In this document: positions 2,472-8,809 of the stretch, in pieces
Numbering within the stretch: the stretch's first letter is position 1
Layout of the letters: the number at the start of each line of letters is the position of its first letter
Source of the DNA: an archaeon
Lineage (GTDB): Archaea > Undinarchaeota > CAZHTU01 > JBDRCC01
Assembly (NCBI GenBank): GCA_043822065.1
Contig: JBDRCC010000022.1
Span: 1 to 64,000 of the forward strand
Reading direction: 5' to 3'
DNA length: 64,000 nucleotides
Translations under genes and position numbers: made by a program
The notes under the pieces: generated by a model
The model's input: the letters and a program-made list of their open reading frames with translations, nothing else
What the model was told of the DNA's origin: nothing
The model's database searches: none

Positions 2472-3734
2472 CTAGGGACTATTGCAATTAGCGTTTATAT
2501 CTTTTTCTTTGGTAGAGTAAATGTCCCGTCCGACTCTTTCTAACTTACCTTGTCCATCCAGTTTTCTAAATATTGGATAAATACGCTCATTTTTGAAGCC
2601 GGTTTGAGAGCGGATCTCTCTGACTTTTAGAGGACCCCGTTTGAGAGCATCGATTAGTTTTAACTGGCTTGCTGCGCCATTGTGTTCATCTCTTGCGTTT
2701 AGAAGGTACTCAATGTAAAAAGATGCCTCTTTAAATCGGTGGTGTTGAAGGATATTTTTTAGCTCTGCATTTGAATTTGATGAATGTTTTAGTTTACCTT
2801 CTCTCTGGAGTAGGTAGAGTTCGCAAATAGATAGAAGCATGTCATTCTTTTCAAACCCCGAGAAATGTTTGCTATTATTGCCTATCTTTATGCCTTCGAT
2901 GAATCCACCAATTTGCAGAAAATTTGCTATAGGCGAGAAAGAAACGGTTGAAAGTCTGTTTTCAGATTTATACATATGTGTACCTACTTCATCGGCTATC
3001 TTTTGCCATTCATTAATTAGAATGGGATGAAAACAAGTCAACATTAGCTTGGGCCTACTGTATTTATTTTTAGAATTGGCAAGCGTAACACATCCTTCTA
3101 AAGAGATTGCCAACCTGAATGCTAATTCTTTTGTTTTCATTGAGCTTCTCTTCAAAAACTTTAATGTTGGTTGCTTCTCTATTAGGTACTGTTCCCAGTT
3201 CTGTTTGCCCCTTGCGGGCTGATGCTTTGTAACCGGAGTTCTGCAATAGATATCGTTTAAGAGTGCTTTTACCGTATTTGCTCGAGCAAAAACCGTAGAA
3301 ACACCTGTTCTCGCATCCCTAGTCATTCTAGGGTTTAAACCAAATTCCTTTAGCATGTCTGTAAAGATACCAAGTGCAACTTTGTCTGTGTTATGCAAAC
3401 GTATGATTTTATGTGAGTGCGAGGATGACCCGTCTGTGAGCAAGAAAACTGCGAGTAAATCTTTAAGCCCTTCCACGCCTATTTGTTTTTTCCAAATAGA
3501 GACTCTCTCCATATCATCTCCATTTGGTGAAGTATGTCTCCTGGAAAGCGTTAATAGATTTGTAGCAGACCTAGTTCGAACTTTTGTAAGGCTCAGAGGT
3601 TCATAACTTTTGAGACGGCCCCATGCCGTTGTGTTTGATACATTGTACAGCTTAGAGATAGTTAAAGTTGGTACGCCCAATTCATAAAGTGCAAGAATGT
3701 TTAAGTCATCGAACAGATTCGTTTTAGGTTTCAT
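2472..3734 (-). CDS. Free-standing LAGLIDADG-like endonuclease with N- and C-terminal HTH-like segments
   Basis: Two LAGLIDADG-like helices (LLAVFLLTDGS, AFRLAISLEGC), N-terminal HTH (LYELGVPTLTISKLYNVSNTTAWGRL) and C-terminal wHTH (LIDALKRGPLKVREIRSQTG). Visibly AT-richer than host genes. Confidence 0.7.
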   Translation of the reverse strand: MKPKTNLFDDLNILALYELGVPTLTISKLYNVSNTTAWGRLKSYEPLSLTKVRTRSATNLLTLSRRHTSPNGDDMERVSIWKKQIGVEGLKDLLAVFLLTDGSSSHSHKIIRLHNTDKVALGIFTDMLKEFGLNPRMTRDARTGVSTVFARANTVKALLNDIYCRTPVTKHQPARGKQNWEQYLIEKQPTLKFLKRSSMKTKELAFRLAISLEGCVTLANSKNKYSRPKLMLTCFHPILINEWQKIADEVGTHMYKSENRLSTVSFSPIANFLQIGGFIEGIKIGNNSKHFSGFEKNDMLLSICELYLLQREGKLKHSSNSNAELKNILQHHRFKEASFYIEYLLNARDEHNGAASQLKLIDALKRGPLKVREIRSQTGFKNERIYPIFRKLDGQGKLERVGRDIYSTKEKDINANCNSP

Positions 3735-4582: not shown

Positions 4583-5839
4583 CTAGGTCCCATTGTCCCA
4601 GGAGGACATATACTTCTTCTGCTGGCTTGTAAGCGAGTCGATTTTCACGCCCTTTGACTTGAGCCAGAGCTGGGCGACGGTGTTGTCTATCTTCGGCGGG
4701 ACGCAGTATAGGTCCGGCTTGAGCTTGTGGTGGTTCTTGGCGAGGAATTCTGCACATAGCGCCTGGTTTGCAAATGACATATCCATAACCTCGATTGCAT
4801 GCCCCTGTGCACAGGCAAGATTGACCAAGCGCCCCTGCGCGAGCAGGTAGATGCGCTTCCCGCTTTTCAGGAGGTATTCGTCGACATCCTTTCTGACATT
4901 GGCTACTCGCTTGGACAATGATTTCAGGGCTGAGATATTCACTTCGACGTCGAAGTGGCCGGTGTTCGAGACAATTGCGCCGTCCTTCATCGTCGGGAAG
5001 TGCTTCTTGTCGATGACGTTTACGTTTCCGGTCGCGGTTATGAAAATGTCGCCCTCTTTTGCCGCGAGGTCCATGGGCATGACGCGGAAGCCGTCCATTT
5101 TCGCCTCTATTGCCTTGACTGGGTCGATTTCAGTGACTACGATGTTTGCGCCCATTCCCCTTGCGCGCATTGCCGCGCCCCTGCCGCACCAGCCGTATCC
5201 TGCAATGACAATTGTTTTTCCAGCAAGGATTGTGTTGGTCGCAGTCATTATGCCCTCGAGGGTGGACTGGCCAGTGCCGTAGCGGTTGTCAAAGAAGTGC
5301 TTTGTCTGGGCGTCGTTTACGTTGAAGACTGGGAACTTGAGCGCGCCCTCTTTTGCCATTACTGCAAGCCGGTGTATTCCGGTCGTCGTTTCCTCACAGC
5401 CCCCAATTATGCTTGGCAAAAGGTCACGGCGCTTTTTGTGGAGAAGGAATATCAGGTCGCAGCCGTCGTCGATTATTATGTCCGGCTTGTGGCCAAGGAC
5501 GCGATTGAGGTTCTTGTAGTAGTCCTTGCTGCTCTCGTTGTACCAAGTGTACACATTCAGCCCGTAGTCGATTGCAAGCGATGCTGCCGCAGAGTCCTGG
5601 GTAGAAAGCGGGTTGCAGCCGGTTATTGCGACTTCGGCGCCTCCGCGGGCAAAAGTGCTGGCGAGAATGCAGGTCTTCGGCTCGACGTGAAGGCACATCC
5701 CGATTGTAAGCCCCTTGAACGGCTTCTCCTTTTGGAAGCGTGCGCCTATGGACTCGAGCACAGGCATATGCCTGCGGGCCCATTCAATTCTTTTCTTTCC
5801 TTCAACGTGCTGCGCCTTGTTGCGGATGTCGTAAGGCAT
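4583..5839 (-). CDS. ahcY: Adenosylhomocysteinase
   Basis: CLHVEPKT, GCNPLSTQD, EETTTG, KHFFDNRYGTGQS, GYGWCGRG, GRLVNL motifs. Confidence 0.97.
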   Translation of the reverse strand: MPYDIRNKAQHVEGKKRIEWARRHMPVLESIGARFQKEKPFKGLTIGMCLHVEPKTCILASTFARGGAEVAITGCNPLSTQDSAAASLAIDYGLNVYTWYNESSKDYYKNLNRVLGHKPDIIIDDGCDLIFLLHKKRRDLLPSIIGGCEETTTGIHRLAVMAKEGALKFPVFNVNDAQTKHFFDNRYGTGQSTLEGIMTATNTILAGKTIVIAGYGWCGRGAAMRARGMGANIVVTEIDPVKAIEAKMDGFRVMPMDLAAKEGDIFITATGNVNVIDKKHFPTMKDGAIVSNTGHFDVEVNISALKSLSKRVANVRKDVDEYLLKSGKRIYLLAQGRLVNLACAQGHAIEVMDMSFANQALCAEFLAKNHHKLKPDLYCVPPKIDNTVAQLWLKSKGVKIDSLTSQQKKYMSSWDNGT

Positions 5840-5882
5840 AGGGACAGTTAGAAATGGCGGGTTTTTAGAGTTTATGTTTGGG

Positions 5883-5898
5883 GAAAATCATTATAAAG
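5883..5898 (+). promoter_or_regulatory. Archaeal BRE/TATA promoter for the leader peptide-cysteine synthase transcript
   Basis: GAAAATCA followed by TTATAAAG, ending about 25 nt before the leader ATG at 5924 (near-leaderless geometry). Confidence 0.6.
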
Positions 5899-5923
5899 CC
5901 CAAGTGCTATAACTTAGTTATAA

Positions 5924-5950
5924 ATGACAGCCAAAGTCTGCTGCTGTTAA
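5924..5950 (+). CDS. Putative cysteine leader peptide MTAKVCCC
   Basis: ATG ACA GCC AAA GTC TGC TGC TGT TAA: three consecutive Cys codons immediately before the stop, 88 nt upstream of cysteine synthase. Confidence 0.75.
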   Translation: MTAKVCCC

Positions 5951-6034
5951 TTTTTGAAGCACTGGTCCAGGCTGTCTTCTGGTTTTTCTGTTTTCGTTCT
6001 TTAAACTAATAGACTGCCAGCCAGTGCTGGGAGG
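5926..6034 (+). promoter_or_regulatory. Putative attenuator with alternative helices, a U-rich tract and an SD-overlapping hairpin
   Basis: GACAGCC 5926-5932 pairs with GGCTGTC 5970-5976. AGCACTGG 5958-5965 pairs with CCAGTGCT 6021-6028. CCAGC 6017-6021 pairs with GCTGG 6026-6030, overlapping the SD GGGAGG 6029-6034. T-rich tract at about 5977-6002. Confidence 0.6.
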
Positions 6035-6038
6035 ATAA

Positions 6039-7004
6039 ATGAAAAGCGTAATTGGGCTGATTGGAAACACGCCGGTTGTAGAATTGGAGAGGCTGAACCC
6101 GACGAGGGGGGTGAGAATCTTCGCAAAGCTTGAGAAGTTCAACCCAGGCGGCTCGGTGAAGGACAGGATTGCCCTGTACATGGTCGAGAAGGCCGAAAGG
6201 GACGGCACCCTGACTATGGACAAAACGATAATAGAGCCGACGTCGGGGAATACTGGAATCGGGCTTGCGATTGTGGGGGCTGCCAAGGGTTATAGGGTCC
6301 AGCTTGTCATGCCTGAGAATATGTCGATTGAGAGAAGGCTGATTCTCCAGGCGCACGGGGCAGAGATTATCCTAACTCCGGAATCGGAAGGGATGAACGG
6401 TGCGGAGGACCTGGCAAAGGAATTGGCAAGGGACACGGACAGATATTTCATGCCAAACCAGTTTGCAAACTCCGCAAACGTCAATGCCCACTATGAGGGG
6501 ACTGGAAAGGAGCTTCTGCGGCAGGTGCCGGACGTAACTCATTTTGTCGCTGGCATGGGAACGGGAGGGACGCTGATGGGTGCCGGCAGGAGACTAAAGG
6601 AGTATAATTCGAAAATAAAAGTAATCGGCGTGGAGCCGCACAAGGAGACGCCGATTCAGGGATTGAAAAACATGGAGATCAGCTACGTGCCGGAAATCTT
6701 CGACAGGTCGAAGCTTGACGAAACAATCGTCGTCAGGCGGGAGCATGCATTCGGCATGGCGCGGGCGCTCGCAAGGGAGGAAGGCCTGCTTGTCGGGATG
6801 AGCTCAGGCGCGGCGATGCACGCTGCAGTCGAGGTTGCGAAAAGGGTTGAAACAGGAAGTATCGTCGTGCTTTTCCCTGACGGCGGCGAGAAGTACCTGA
6901 CGACAGAGCTGTACAAGGAGGTTCCGGAGTCCTGCAGGAGGTGCAACCTCAAAGTAGTTGAGCTGAAGAAAAGCATGGAAGAAGTGGCGGCAAAAAGATT
7001 ATAA
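6039..7004 (+). CDS. Cysteine synthase (PLP-dependent, CysK/CysM family)
   Basis: IGNTP, KLEKFNPGGSVKDR (PLP Lys), PTSGNTG, GMGTGGT, FPDGGEKY. Confidence 0.95.
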   Translation: MKSVIGLIGNTPVVELERLNPTRGVRIFAKLEKFNPGGSVKDRIALYMVEKAERDGTLTMDKTIIEPTSGNTGIGLAIVGAAKGYRVQLVMPENMSIERRLILQAHGAEIILTPESEGMNGAEDLAKELARDTDRYFMPNQFANSANVNAHYEGTGKELLRQVPDVTHFVAGMGTGGTLMGAGRRLKEYNSKIKVIGVEPHKETPIQGLKNMEISYVPEIFDRSKLDETIVVRREHAFGMARALAREEGLLVGMSSGAAMHAAVEVAKRVETGSIVVLFPDGGEKYLTTELYKEVPESCRRCNLKVVELKKSMEEVAAKRL

Positions 7005-7027
7005 GAACCGGTAAAGATAAGCTCAGC

Positions 7028-8017
7028 ATGAAAAAGGTAAAAGCCGTTGGCCTGCTTTCCGGCGGGCTGGATAGCACACTTGCAGCGAAGATGGTATTAG
7101 ACCAGGGCATCGACGTTGTCGCGCTTAATTTTACCTCTCCATTTTGTACTTGTAGCAGAGAGGGCAGATGCGAATCTGCTGAAGCTGCCGAACACCTTGG
7201 CATTGAGTTGAAGGCCATGCCCAAGGGTGATGATTATATTCACGTTATAAGGAATCCGAAGCACGGCTACGGCAAGAACATGAATCCGTGCATAGATTGC
7301 CGGATTTATATTCTGAAAAAGGCGAAGGATTTTGCAAAGGAGATTGGAGCTGATTTCATTTTTACTGGTGAAGTCCTCGACCAGCGGCCAAAGAGCCAGC
7401 ACAGGAGGGCGCTAGAGATTATTGAGAGGGAGTCGGGTCTTAAGGGAAAGTTGCTGAGGCCGCTTTCTGCGAAATTGTTGGCTGAGACTGAAGTTGAGAA
7501 GAAGGGCTTAATTGATAGGAAGAAGCTTGGCGACATGCATGGAAGGTCAAGAAAAAGGCAGATGGAGATGGCCGATGACATAAATCTTGTTGACTACCAC
7601 TGTGCAGGCGGTGGCTGTCTGCTGACTGAGAAAAGGATTGCAAAGAGGGTTCGCGATTTTCTTGACCATAATGCGGACGCAAAGATGCGGGACATGTGGC
7701 TGCTGAAGTATGGACGGCACTTCAGGGTTGGGGAGAACAAGATTATCGTCGGCAGGGACGAGGGTGAGAACAAAAAGCTATTGGCTTTCAAGAAAGAGAA
7801 TGATTTTGTTTTCGAGATTAAGGGCGTCGGGAGCCCGATTGTTGTTTTACAGGGGAGAAAAGGCAAAAAGGCAATAGAGATGGCCGCAAGGCTTGCCGCA
7901 AGGTATTCAGATGCGAAAGGGGAGGAAGTCATTGTGGGCTATTTGGCTGGAAAAAAGCACCATAAAATCAGGGTCAGCCCCGCGCGCAGGGAAGAGATTG
8001 AAAAGTATTTAATCTGA
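7028..8017 (+). CDS. PP-loop tRNA sulfurtransferase (ThiI/MnmA-like) with C-terminal DUF814-like region
   Basis: SGGLDS PP-loop, NPCIDCRI, TGEVLDQRP, GGCLLT, GRHFR. Confidence 0.8.
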   Translation: MKKVKAVGLLSGGLDSTLAAKMVLDQGIDVVALNFTSPFCTCSREGRCESAEAAEHLGIELKAMPKGDDYIHVIRNPKHGYGKNMNPCIDCRIYILKKAKDFAKEIGADFIFTGEVLDQRPKSQHRRALEIIERESGLKGKLLRPLSAKLLAETEVEKKGLIDRKKLGDMHGRSRKRQMEMADDINLVDYHCAGGGCLLTEKRIAKRVRDFLDHNADAKMRDMWLLKYGRHFRVGENKIIVGRDEGENKKLLAFKKENDFVFEIKGVGSPIVVLQGRKGKKAIEMAARLAARYSDAKGEEVIVGYLAGKKHHKIRVSPARREEIEKYLI

Positions 8018-8035
8018 GCGGGCGTAGATAGGAAT

Positions 8036-8809
8036 ATGACAAAAATATGCACGAAGTGCGGCAAAAAAGTGGAGCACGTCCACCTGTGTTCGCACTGCAA
8101 GCAGGAGTTCTGCATCCCGCACTCGCGCCACTACAAAGGCCATTATTTCTGCGTCGACTGCATTAACAAGTACTACCGGGCGCCGACGAGAGTCAGGAAG
8201 CCAAGGGCCGCCCCCCTGCCGCAGAAGCAGGCAGGATTTGGGTTCGGGTTTGCGAAGCCGCCGGTCCAGCAGGGGCAGGCGCCTGCGCCGCCGCAAATTG
8301 ACGCGCGGAAGATGCTCGTCCCAATCATTGTCCTAATTGCAGTCATTGTTGCCGCCGGAGTCGGGACTATAAAGGCAGGGGGCCTGTCGAGGGGCGGCGC
8401 CATAGAAAACGAGAGCGCAACAGTTGTAGAAGAGATAGGGCGGCTCGACACCAACATGACAAACGTTTTTCCGCACATGGCGTTCTATCTGGAGGTCACG
8501 AACTATTCGCTGTCCTGCGCAGGGAACAAGGTCACGGAGATGGAATTCGAGCTTAGGGCTGGCGGGAGGGCGATTGACATAACCCGCGTGGAGCTTGGCA
8601 AGAAGGTCGTAAATGAGACCGACTGGTCGGCAGGCAAGGTTGAAAAGGACCATTACGGGTGGATAAACCTCAACGACGTCGAGAGGTACGCAAACATAAC
8701 CAAGGGCGCGGAGCCGGAGATTTCCGTTGTTTTTGAGGGAAAGGAAGGAGTCAACCAAAAGGTCGTGTTCATACCGAACATGGCCGTCAAGTGCGGCCAG
8801 GGAAGGTAG
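8036..8809 (+). CDS. AN1-like zinc-finger membrane protein
   Basis: N-terminal CxxC...CxxCxxxFCxxH...CxxC, a Pro-rich linker, one TM helix and a C-terminal domain. Confidence 0.65.
   Translation: MTKICTKCGKKVEHVHLCSHCKQEFCIPHSRHYKGHYFCVDCINKYYRAPTRVRKPRAAPLPQKQAGFGFGFAKPPVQQGQAPAPPQIDARKMLVPIIVLIAVIVAAGVGTIKAGGLSRGGAIENESATVVEEIGRLDTNMTNVFPHMAFYLEVTNYSLSCAGNKVTEMEFELRAGGRAIDITRVELGKKVVNETDWSAGKVEKDHYGWINLNDVERYANITKGAEPEISVVFEGKEGVNQKVVFIPNMAVKCGQGR

Follow-up and report, generated by a model that had tools for sequence, protein, structure and literature searches.

The window analysed here, a stretch of 64,000 nucleotides (nt) from contig JBDRCC010000022.1 of an Undinarchaeota genome assembly (GCA_043822065.1), carries a cysteine synthase gene (cysK) whose leader contains an eight-codon upstream open reading frame (uORF), MTAKVCCC*, ending in three consecutive Cys codons. 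Poly-Cys uORFs are conserved before cysK in other archaea and, when folded with a ribosome at successive positions, the leader behaves as a thermodynamic switch acting on the Shine-Dalgarno sequence (SD) of cysK. As a whole, these data are likely best explained by a ribosome-mediated sensor of Cys-tRNA(Cys) supply in the leader of the cysK operon, a reading drawn from sequence, modelling and analogy in which the transcription start, the stalling of the ribosome and the response to cysteine are predicted. It appears highly likely that the Cys codons act as a sensor read by the ribosome, and rather likely, judging from the models, that the read-out in the window is unmasking of the SD. The arrangement had been noticed earlier in the bare sequence (the original prediction); that observation was confirmed, and its interpretation as attenuation is supported by the comparison and modelling reported here.

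The uORF, the B recognition element (BRE) and TATA box, the SD, the competing helices and the U-rich tract of the original prediction matched the sequence base for base (Table 1). Cys accounts for three of the eight uORF codons, the kind of enrichment found in leader peptides of classical attenuators, and the uORF stop lies 88 nt from the cysK ATG (6039) on the same strand. A TATA-like octamer is centred 30 nt before the uORF ATG, with no SD-like motif upstream of the uORF. Because this agrees with the usual archaeal spacing between TATA box and start, transcription is predicted to begin at the uORF ATG (5924) or a few bases before it. Cys-Cys-Cys can be read 99 times in any frame of the 1.03-Mb assembly, 15 times in open reading frames (ORFs) of at most 30 codons; five of these 15 start with ATG, and the window uORF alone is shorter than 10 codons. 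A search of positions 5700-6200 against Rfam gave as its sole match up to E = 1 a chance snoRNA hit (19 bits, against a gathering score of 50). Elsewhere in the same genome, on contig C20 (24451-24540, plus strand), a 29-codon ORF ends in KPKPKPSCCCR and has a TATA-like box about 25-30 nt upstream; the gene that its TGA overlaps, at the ATG, is for a permease-like membrane protein of 315 aa, and a gene for a thioredoxin-like membrane protein adjoins. Either another Cys leader or a genuine small protein may be encoded here.

The gene downstream of the uORF had been called a cysteine synthase, and profile matches bear this out: its product matched PALP (PF00291; 250 bits, 3.5e-74) and TIGR01136 (379 bits, the cut-off being 344), placing it in the CysK/CysM family. 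It was the single gene of its kind found in the assembly, which is 82% complete. The 3′ end of the genome's 16S rRNA is GGATCACCTCCT, with CCUCC as anti-SD, and SD-like motifs lie ahead of 176 of 1028 crude ORF starts in this genome, compared with 75 in a control window. The GGGAGG hexamer before cysK is therefore taken to be a real ribosome-binding site, since it matches the 16S 3′ end and such motifs are enriched before ORF starts.

For comparison, cysK loci were collected from the phylum of the window (17 genomes), 41 sampled relatives, three further phyla of small-genome archaea (31, 42 and 371 genomes) and extra regions. This gave 96 loci, cited below by L numbers, of which 92 had at least 150 nt of upstream sequence and were assessable. 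A uORF was assigned to class I if it had at most 32 codons, contained a run of three or more Cys codons and lay no more than 700 nt upstream of cysK. Such uORFs were found at 17 of the 92 loci, the window included, in four phyla. Among the matches listed for a mostly bacterial species sample, Actinomycetota included, only one of 80 cysK loci had one (L052, Patescibacteria), and none was found at 77 metagenome loci whose cysK was 53-60% identical, no closer cysK being among the metagenome matches. Absence of Cys-rich uORFs from orthologous leaders had been named beforehand as grounds for abandoning the prediction; 16 other archaeal loci have one, against 1 of 157 controls.

Class I peptides range from 8 to about 25 codons and end in forms such as LCCCC, ACCCCC, ICCCCCC, SCCC and SSCCCCE. 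The Cys run is the sole feature common to all 17, usually with a hydrophobic residue before it. Sharing so little at such varied length, the peptides would seem to serve as sensors rather than as functional products. A TATA-like octamer is centred 22-30 nt before the uORF ATG at 15 of the 17 loci, 14 of which have no SD-like motif; two class I uORFs (L258 and L263) are SD-led. This spacing, mostly without an SD, suggests that class I uORFs are leaderless or near-leaderless, as in mycobacteria. Pairing of the 5′ part of the uORF with the first 50 nt past its stop exceeded that of shuffled sequences (mean z = −1.46, below −2 in 6 of 17 leaders), though the leaders are partly related and the statistic overstates their independence.

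Leaders L224 and L225, from another phylum, and L268 resemble that of the window in detail: L224 has the U-run after the stop codon followed by GA(A)GCACUGG, and L268 has the 5′ GACAGCC with a GGCUGU partner. A motif close to GCAYWGG(C) occurs 8-12 nt past the uORF stop in the window (5958-5965) and in L224, L225, L221, L258, L263, L267, L269, L004, L005 and L007, spanning four phyla. In the window it forms the 5′ arm of the 8-bp helix; its partner elsewhere differs or is less clear. At L003 (genome G001, of the window's order) an ORF that stops 10 nt short of cysK is rich in Cys (..CTCPEGECTGQLGCTECELEQT) but has no Cys run; the contig ends 125 nt upstream of cysK. A Cys-regulon pattern, TGYTGYTGYTGYTRR, was tried and rejected. 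It matched 205 of 371 genomes, but 26 of 30 fetched loci had no in-frame ATG, and at the 13 of these 30 whose context was read the match was coding sequence in another frame (Val-Ala-Ala-Asp/Glu; one RuBisCO-like gene), so that the pattern is uninformative about uORFs.

The window leader is more stable than expected from its composition. Its 125 nt gave a minimum free energy (MFE) of −39.2 kcal/mol, compared with −27.9 ± 3.6 for shuffles (z = −3.1), and none of 200 dinucleotide shuffles was as stable. The 7-bp helix joining the 5′ part of the uORF to the segment past its stop had a duplex energy of −14.1 (shuffles −9.4 ± 2.5, z = −1.85, p = 0.047). Positions 5924-6050 were then folded with a 30-nt ribosome footprint at successive A sites, the 3′ edge being set at the A site plus 14 nt. 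In free RNA the hairpin inside the uORF formed with probability 0.81, the 8-bp helix with 0.99 and the pairing 5950-5955/6031-6036 with 0.93, leaving the SD hexamer unpaired at 0.36. With the A site on the first, second or third Cys codon the 8-bp helix persisted (0.99, 0.99 and 0.73), all SD pairings were lost, and the hexamer was predicted to be unpaired with probabilities of 0.87, 0.99 and 0.95. When the A site was placed on the stop codon, the 8-bp helix disappeared (0.00), the 7-bp helix and the local SD hairpin formed (1.00 and 0.99), and the SD was unpaired at 0.23. The change in SD accessibility from free to stalled was 0.64, compared with 0.00 ± 0.09 when 5951-6016 was shuffled, and none of 300 shuffles equalled it. 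With shuffled spacers, the U-rich spacer kept the SD paired at every ribosome position; the native leader differs in that, in the model, the extended 8-bp helix ties up the U-rich tract and keeps it from the SD.

In silico, then, the SD is masked by an RNA duplex that cannot form while a ribosome occupies the Cys tract. The original prediction had described a choice among three helices set by the position of the ribosome, with footprint-constrained folding as a check, and that logic was reproduced. Its scheme for masking the SD held in part: the local hairpin does form in the stop state, but masking in free RNA is mainly due to the pairing 5950-5955/6031-6036 (0.93), which it had not listed.

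A mechanism can be proposed on this basis, in which the cysK operon leader would sense the supply of Cys-tRNA(Cys) through the ribosome. The transcript would begin at or just before the AUG of the eight-codon uORF. When Cys-tRNA(Cys) is plentiful, the ribosome would reach the stop codon, its footprint covering the 5′ arm of the 8-bp helix. The local SD hairpin would then form together with the 7-bp helix and pairings between U-tract and SD, and cysK initiation would be low. It would stay low after release of the ribosome, when AUUUUU beside the stop would pair with the SD. When Cys-tRNA(Cys) is scarce, the ribosome would stall on one of the three Cys codons, covering the uORF and AUUUUU but sparing the 8-bp helix. 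With this helix intact, the U-rich tract would be held off and the SD would be single-stranded, so that cysK and the two genes behind it would be translated.

Several observations weigh against this mechanism, in whole or in part. The outcome in the stop state depends on the assumed 3′ edge of the footprint (A site plus 14 nt). When the 13 class I leaders with an SD-led gene were folded alike, strong opening of the SD was seen in the window alone (0.20 to 0.94); it was moderate in L258 (0.51 to 0.81) and L198 (0.37 to 0.54), weak in L031 and nil in 9 of the 13. In L002, L031 and L034 four segments with alternative pairings ending on the SD can be made out by eye, but the equilibrium model leaves the SD closed throughout. 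No close relative among the 17 genomes of the phylum shares the window leader; of the two genomes from the same order, one has no uORF (L008) and in the other the contig is cut 125 nt upstream of cysK (L003). A TATA-like sequence, CTTTAAAC, at about 6000-6007, some 25 nt before the SD, is a candidate second promoter that would give cysK a short leader and bypass the uORF. A search for sequencing runs covering 5400-7100 listed none.

A further point concerns tRNA. Between the Cys uORF and cysK, 11 of the 96 loci (L004, L005, L007, L214, L217, L222, L223, L226, L230, L243 and L249) have a tRNA-Cys(GCA) gene, oriented like cysK and 22-300 nt before it; no other kind of tRNA occurs there. The distance between the 3′ end of this gene and the start of the cysK match is 22-28 nt in six loci. 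In L004, L005 and L007 the uORF upstream of the tRNA-Cys gene is a poly-Cys one. A tRNA cannot be translationally controlled, which at least in these three loci argues for a read-out through transcription or processing. The window genome's own tRNA-Cys, on contig C7, has no Cys uORF upstream.

The same sensor could therefore be read out by premature transcription termination in the U-rich tract 5977-6002, an alternative that we consider possible but rather unlikely for the window. The helix of the uORF 5′ part with 5970-5976, followed by U-runs, could bring termination about; or a stalled ribosome could block the archaeal termination factor from the U-rich RNA beside the stop, in parallel to the bacterial case in which TnaC blocks Rho. 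Tracts as dense in T as this one are rare in a genome of 53% G+C (48 on both strands of the 1.03 Mb), and it follows immediately on the 3′ arm of the 7-bp helix; using crude ORF calls, no tie between the 48 tracts and gene ends was made. The pairing of the uORF 5′ part past the stop, which beats shuffles across leaders, is followed by runs of at least five U in L224, L225, L268, L267, L198 and L005, and the tRNA-Cys genes of L004, L005 and L007 point the same way, although the T-rich stretch in L004 and L005 could be the tRNA's own promoter. The U-rich tract had already been suggested as a terminator. The tract itself is present (18 T in 26 nt), but a terminator-like hairpin at 5967-5982 followed by TTTTT, flagged by a scan, had a pair probability of 0.00 in all five modelled states. 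The role of hairpins in archaeal termination is uncertain, and a U-tract alone may suffice. As an antiterminator the 7-bp helix would give inverted logic, because a stalled ribosome covers its 5′ arm, and L002, L031 and L034 lack a U-tract after the helix.

Other explanations would dispense with the sensor. The uORF might go unused, with cysK mRNA starting downstream or the ORF being a by-product of promoter-region sequence. AT-rich, TATA-like octamers, one overlapping the ATG at 5918-5925 and the other at about 6000-6007, would fit this, but it is improbable given that 16 other loci with unrelated flanks have a poly-Cys uORF (1 of 157 controls), that the distance from TATA to ATG is 22-30 nt at 15 of 17 loci, and that 0 of 300 shuffles matched the switch dependent on ribosome position. 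Still less probable is a functional Cys-rich micropeptide, binding a metal or sulfur for example. Cys-rich small proteins do exist, and the 29-aa ORF ending in SCCCR elsewhere in the genome overlaps the start of a permease-like gene; yet across the 17 loci the peptides conserve neither length nor any residue beyond the Cys run and carry no signal or anchor, the uORF is in every case upstream of a cysteine-synthesis gene, and a product of eight residues is unlikely to be stable. That the window uses +1 frameshifting at a hungry Cys codon, a candidate site for which occurs at 41 of 92 related loci (class II, below), can be practically dismissed: the +1 frame opened at GTC TGC runs into a stop after 7 codons, cysK is equipped with an SD and an ATG of its own, and the class II motif has no match in the whole assembly of the window genome. 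On balance the ribosome-mediated Cys-tRNA sensor is preferred.

A close functional parallel is known from bacteria. In Mycobacterium smegmatis, mutation showed that a ribosome stalled on a leaderless polycysteine small ORF (sORF) frees the SD of a cysteine gene (10.1101/834739), in keeping with the poly-Cys attenuators of mycobacteria and Actinobacteria that the original prediction mentioned; the 'Cys ribulon' comprises Ms5788A plus five further loci (Canestrari et al., bioRxiv 10.1101/834739). So far as the available portions of that preprint go, the mycobacterial sORFs and the window uORF agree in being Cys-run ORFs, leaderless (predicted for the window), that form the first cistron of a cysteine-metabolism operon. 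They agree also, on the window model, in that a ribosome in the Cys tract prevents a duplex from masking the SD of the next gene. By its sequence the window uORF shows the traits of the polycysteine sORF class, for which two or more and typically at least three Cys codons in a row are expected: it has a run of three and a cysteine-gene operon on the same strand. The differences are that the window is archaeal, with a TATA/BRE instead of a sigma promoter and no sequence relationship, and that its uORF, with 8 codons of which 3 are Cys, is far smaller. The SD region of Ms5788A pairs with the Cys codons themselves, whereas in the window the partners of the SD are the U-run after the stop, the local hairpin and the U-rich tract, with the 8-bp helix as anti-sequestrator. 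With only one such locus found in the window genome there is no regulon, unlike in mycobacteria. The window element thus appears to be an analogue of the actinobacterial elements and not a member by descent, because it belongs to another domain of life and only 1 of the 80 mostly bacterial loci listed had a CCC uORF. Sequence and modelling together suggest an archaeal variant of a known bacterial type of switch.

The trp, his, leu and pheA attenuators of enterobacteria likewise have a leader peptide with tandem codons for the end product and mutually exclusive helices chosen by the position of the ribosome. They end in a bacterial intrinsic terminator; in the window the corresponding hairpin is unpopulated, the modelled read-out is SD accessibility, and transcription is archaeal. 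The bacterial ermC and cat leaders, which act by translational attenuation, resemble the window in that arrest of a ribosome on a short leader ORF rearranges hairpins so that a downstream SD is exposed (as summarised in the available portions of 10.1101/834739 and PMC5009743). They are triggered by a specific nascent peptide combined with an antibiotic in the exit tunnel, while the trigger in the window is presumed to be a shortage of one aminoacyl-tRNA.

A second arrangement (class II) was seen in relatives and not in the window. At 41 of the 92 archaeal cysK loci there is an SD-led uORF with a single early Cys codon, giving 44 sites in 42 distinct contexts (for example at L004, L012, L195, L207-L209, L214, L217, L222, L228, L231, L235 and L238). 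The consensus is ATG, 0-2 codons, GGT GAA (or GGT GGA / GGG GAA), one codon, then [C/G/T]TT TGY, and the codon before Cys is NTT in 37 of the 42 contexts. The +1 frame is the cysK body itself in 17 contexts; in the other 25 it is open and ends at the cysK start, often with an ATGA overlap, over a median of 60 codons compared with 5 in the +2 frame. No ATG, GTG or TTG precedes the site in the +1 frame in 16 of the 42, and cysK in L004 and L012 has no canonical start at all. With the motif required, the pattern was present at 35 of 75 loci and at none of the controls (0/79 and 0/76, 0/155 together).

Some of the +1 ORFs are themselves of interest. Those at L235 (1292-1477, plus strand), L233 (2391-2576, minus strand) and L237 (126-320, plus strand) encode small winged-helix-like proteins that are homologous to one another, with HTH_20 / ArsR-type hits that stay below the Pfam cut-off (E 2e-4 to 2e-3). 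The 62-aa winged-helix-like domain of L235 (HTH_20, E 0.002) directly follows a TAG, with no canonical start before the helix-turn-helix (HTH), and a protein of this type may be a regulator made only after frameshifting. At L215 (2418-2873, minus strand), L218 (2442-2894, minus strand) and L216 an ORF of some 150 codons resembling ParB_N (E 3e-5 to 1e-4) lies between the Cys uORF and cysK, its stop codon overlapping the ATG of cysK. The uORF of L215 and L218 reads ..KNLCPGK, and the ParB_N-like ORF is in its +1 frame. We presume that this ORF may encode a ParB-like serine kinase belonging to the phosphoserine route by which archaea make cysteine. No homologue of the L215 gene was found in the assembly of the window genome.

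Class II recalls the frameshift site of release factor 2 (RF2, prfB). The available text of a 2016 review describes the shift there as highly conserved, at CUU_U and in rare cases UUU_U, with an A-site codon that is decoded slowly, and a conserved stimulatory SD-like sequence 5′ of the shift in which glycine is commonly encoded (PMC5009743). Class II sites share with this, as there described, NUU_U (37/42), a Gly-encoding SD-like GGUGAA, GGUGGA or GGGGAA, one spacer codon and a productive gene in the +1 frame. The spacing between SD-like hexamer and shift site is, we assume, also that of RF2. They differ in that the A-site codon is UGY, a Cys sense codon, and not UGA, so that the molecule sensed would be Cys-tRNA. 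The product, too, would be unlike RF2: cysteine synthase, a small winged HTH protein or a linker ORF coupled to the start of cysK. Lacking Cys-tRNA, the ribosome would shift into the +1 frame, and only after that shift would cysteine synthase, the DNA-binding protein or the linker peptide be made.

An embedded GTG start could replace the frameshift, since the SD-like GGTG supplies a +1-frame GTG in 23 of 31 tabulated class II sites, but in at least two (L012 and L235) an in-frame stop separates this GTG from the +1 ORF. From their sequences, class II sites are candidates for +1 programmed frameshifting on cysteine starvation. Ketolide-induced frameshifting in the ermC leader is a precedent for frameshifted ribosomes opening a spacer (PMC5009743). 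For Archaea, the available part of a 2021 review gives fucA1, a −1 frameshift, as the sole reported cellular case, besides some viral ones and a suggested one in magnesium chelatase.

Around the leader, cysK and the two genes that follow it (7028..8809) are probably co-transcribed, judging from their common strand and short gaps (Table 1). Divergent from the cysK leader is an adenosylhomocysteinase gene (4583-5839, minus strand). A 420-aa ORF at 2472-3734 (minus strand) had only a weak match, to LAGLIDADG_3 (E 5.7e-5; 23.7 bits, with the cut-off at 22.5), and none among NCBIfam families. An MCM gene marks the genome as archaeal.

Table 1. Features of the cysK leader and operon, numbered by position in the window (probabilities are from the footprint-constrained folding)
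Feature	Position	Strand	Basis or detail
Purine-rich BRE-like stretch GAAAATC and TATA box TTATAAA (5891-5897)	5883..5897	+	Sequence read
uORF MTAKVCCC*, predicted leaderless or near-leaderless	5924..5950	+	ATG ACA GCC AAA GTC TGC TGC TGT TAA
Hairpin inside uORF, 5925-5931 / 5943-5949, over start codon, last Cys codon and stop codon	5925..5949	+	MFE; probability 0.81 in free RNA, 0 with ribosome on uORF
Perfect 7-bp helix GACAGCC (5926-5932) / GGCTGTC (5970-5976), uORF 5′ part with post-stop segment	5926..5976	+	Probability 1.00 solely with ribosome at stop
Three Cys codons in a row, TGC TGC TGT, proposed sensor	5939..5947	+	TAA comes next
AUUUUU right after stop, pairing with SD region 6031-6036	5950..5955	+	MFE; probability 0.93 free, 0.00-0.09 with ribosome on Cys codons
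Perfect 8-bp helix AGCACTGG (5958-5965) / CCAGTGCT (6021-6028), extended inward	5958..6028	+	Probability 0.99 free, 0.73-0.99 stalled, 0.00 at stop
U-rich tract, 18 T in 26 nt; can pair with purine-rich SD or act as archaeal termination signal	5977..6002	+	Sequence read
Local 5-bp hairpin CCAGC (6017-6021) / GCTGG (6026-6030), including first two SD bases	6017..6030	+	Probability 0.99 solely with ribosome at uORF stop
SD of cysK, GGGAGG	6029..6034	+	Complements 16S 3′ end ...CACCTCCT
CysK/CysM-type cysteine synthase (pyridoxal phosphate-dependent), 321 aa, controlled gene	6039..7004	+	Profile matches PF00291, TIGR01136
PP-loop ATPase with NFACT-R_2 domain	7028-8017	+	Profile matches; 23-nt gap after cysK
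257-aa protein, no family matched	8036-8809	+	18-nt gap after PP-loop gene

It is an even question whether small-genome archaea in general control cysteine synthesis through leader Cys codons in two ways, one a poly-Cys leaderless uORF and the other an RF2-like frameshift site at Cys. If they do, class II would be natural, productive hungry-codon frameshifting used as a metabolic sensor; the available portion of the 2016 review knows no example of hungry-codon frameshifting that gives a starvation-specific product (PMC5009743). The poly-Cys uORF would then be amino-acid attenuation in Archaea, a domain for which no case of leader-peptide attenuation, textbook knowledge in bacteria, was found in the literature searched; the original prediction, too, knew of no characterised archaeal poly-Cys uORF attenuator. 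The window leader is compact, with three helices and one SD in 115 nt. If poly-Cys leaders, conserved before cysK in four archaeal phyla, work as proposed, ribosome-based amino-acid sensing would also operate with archaeal transcription and leaderless initiation, and genomes of about 1 Mb with few regulators would still keep cysteine synthesis under feedback.

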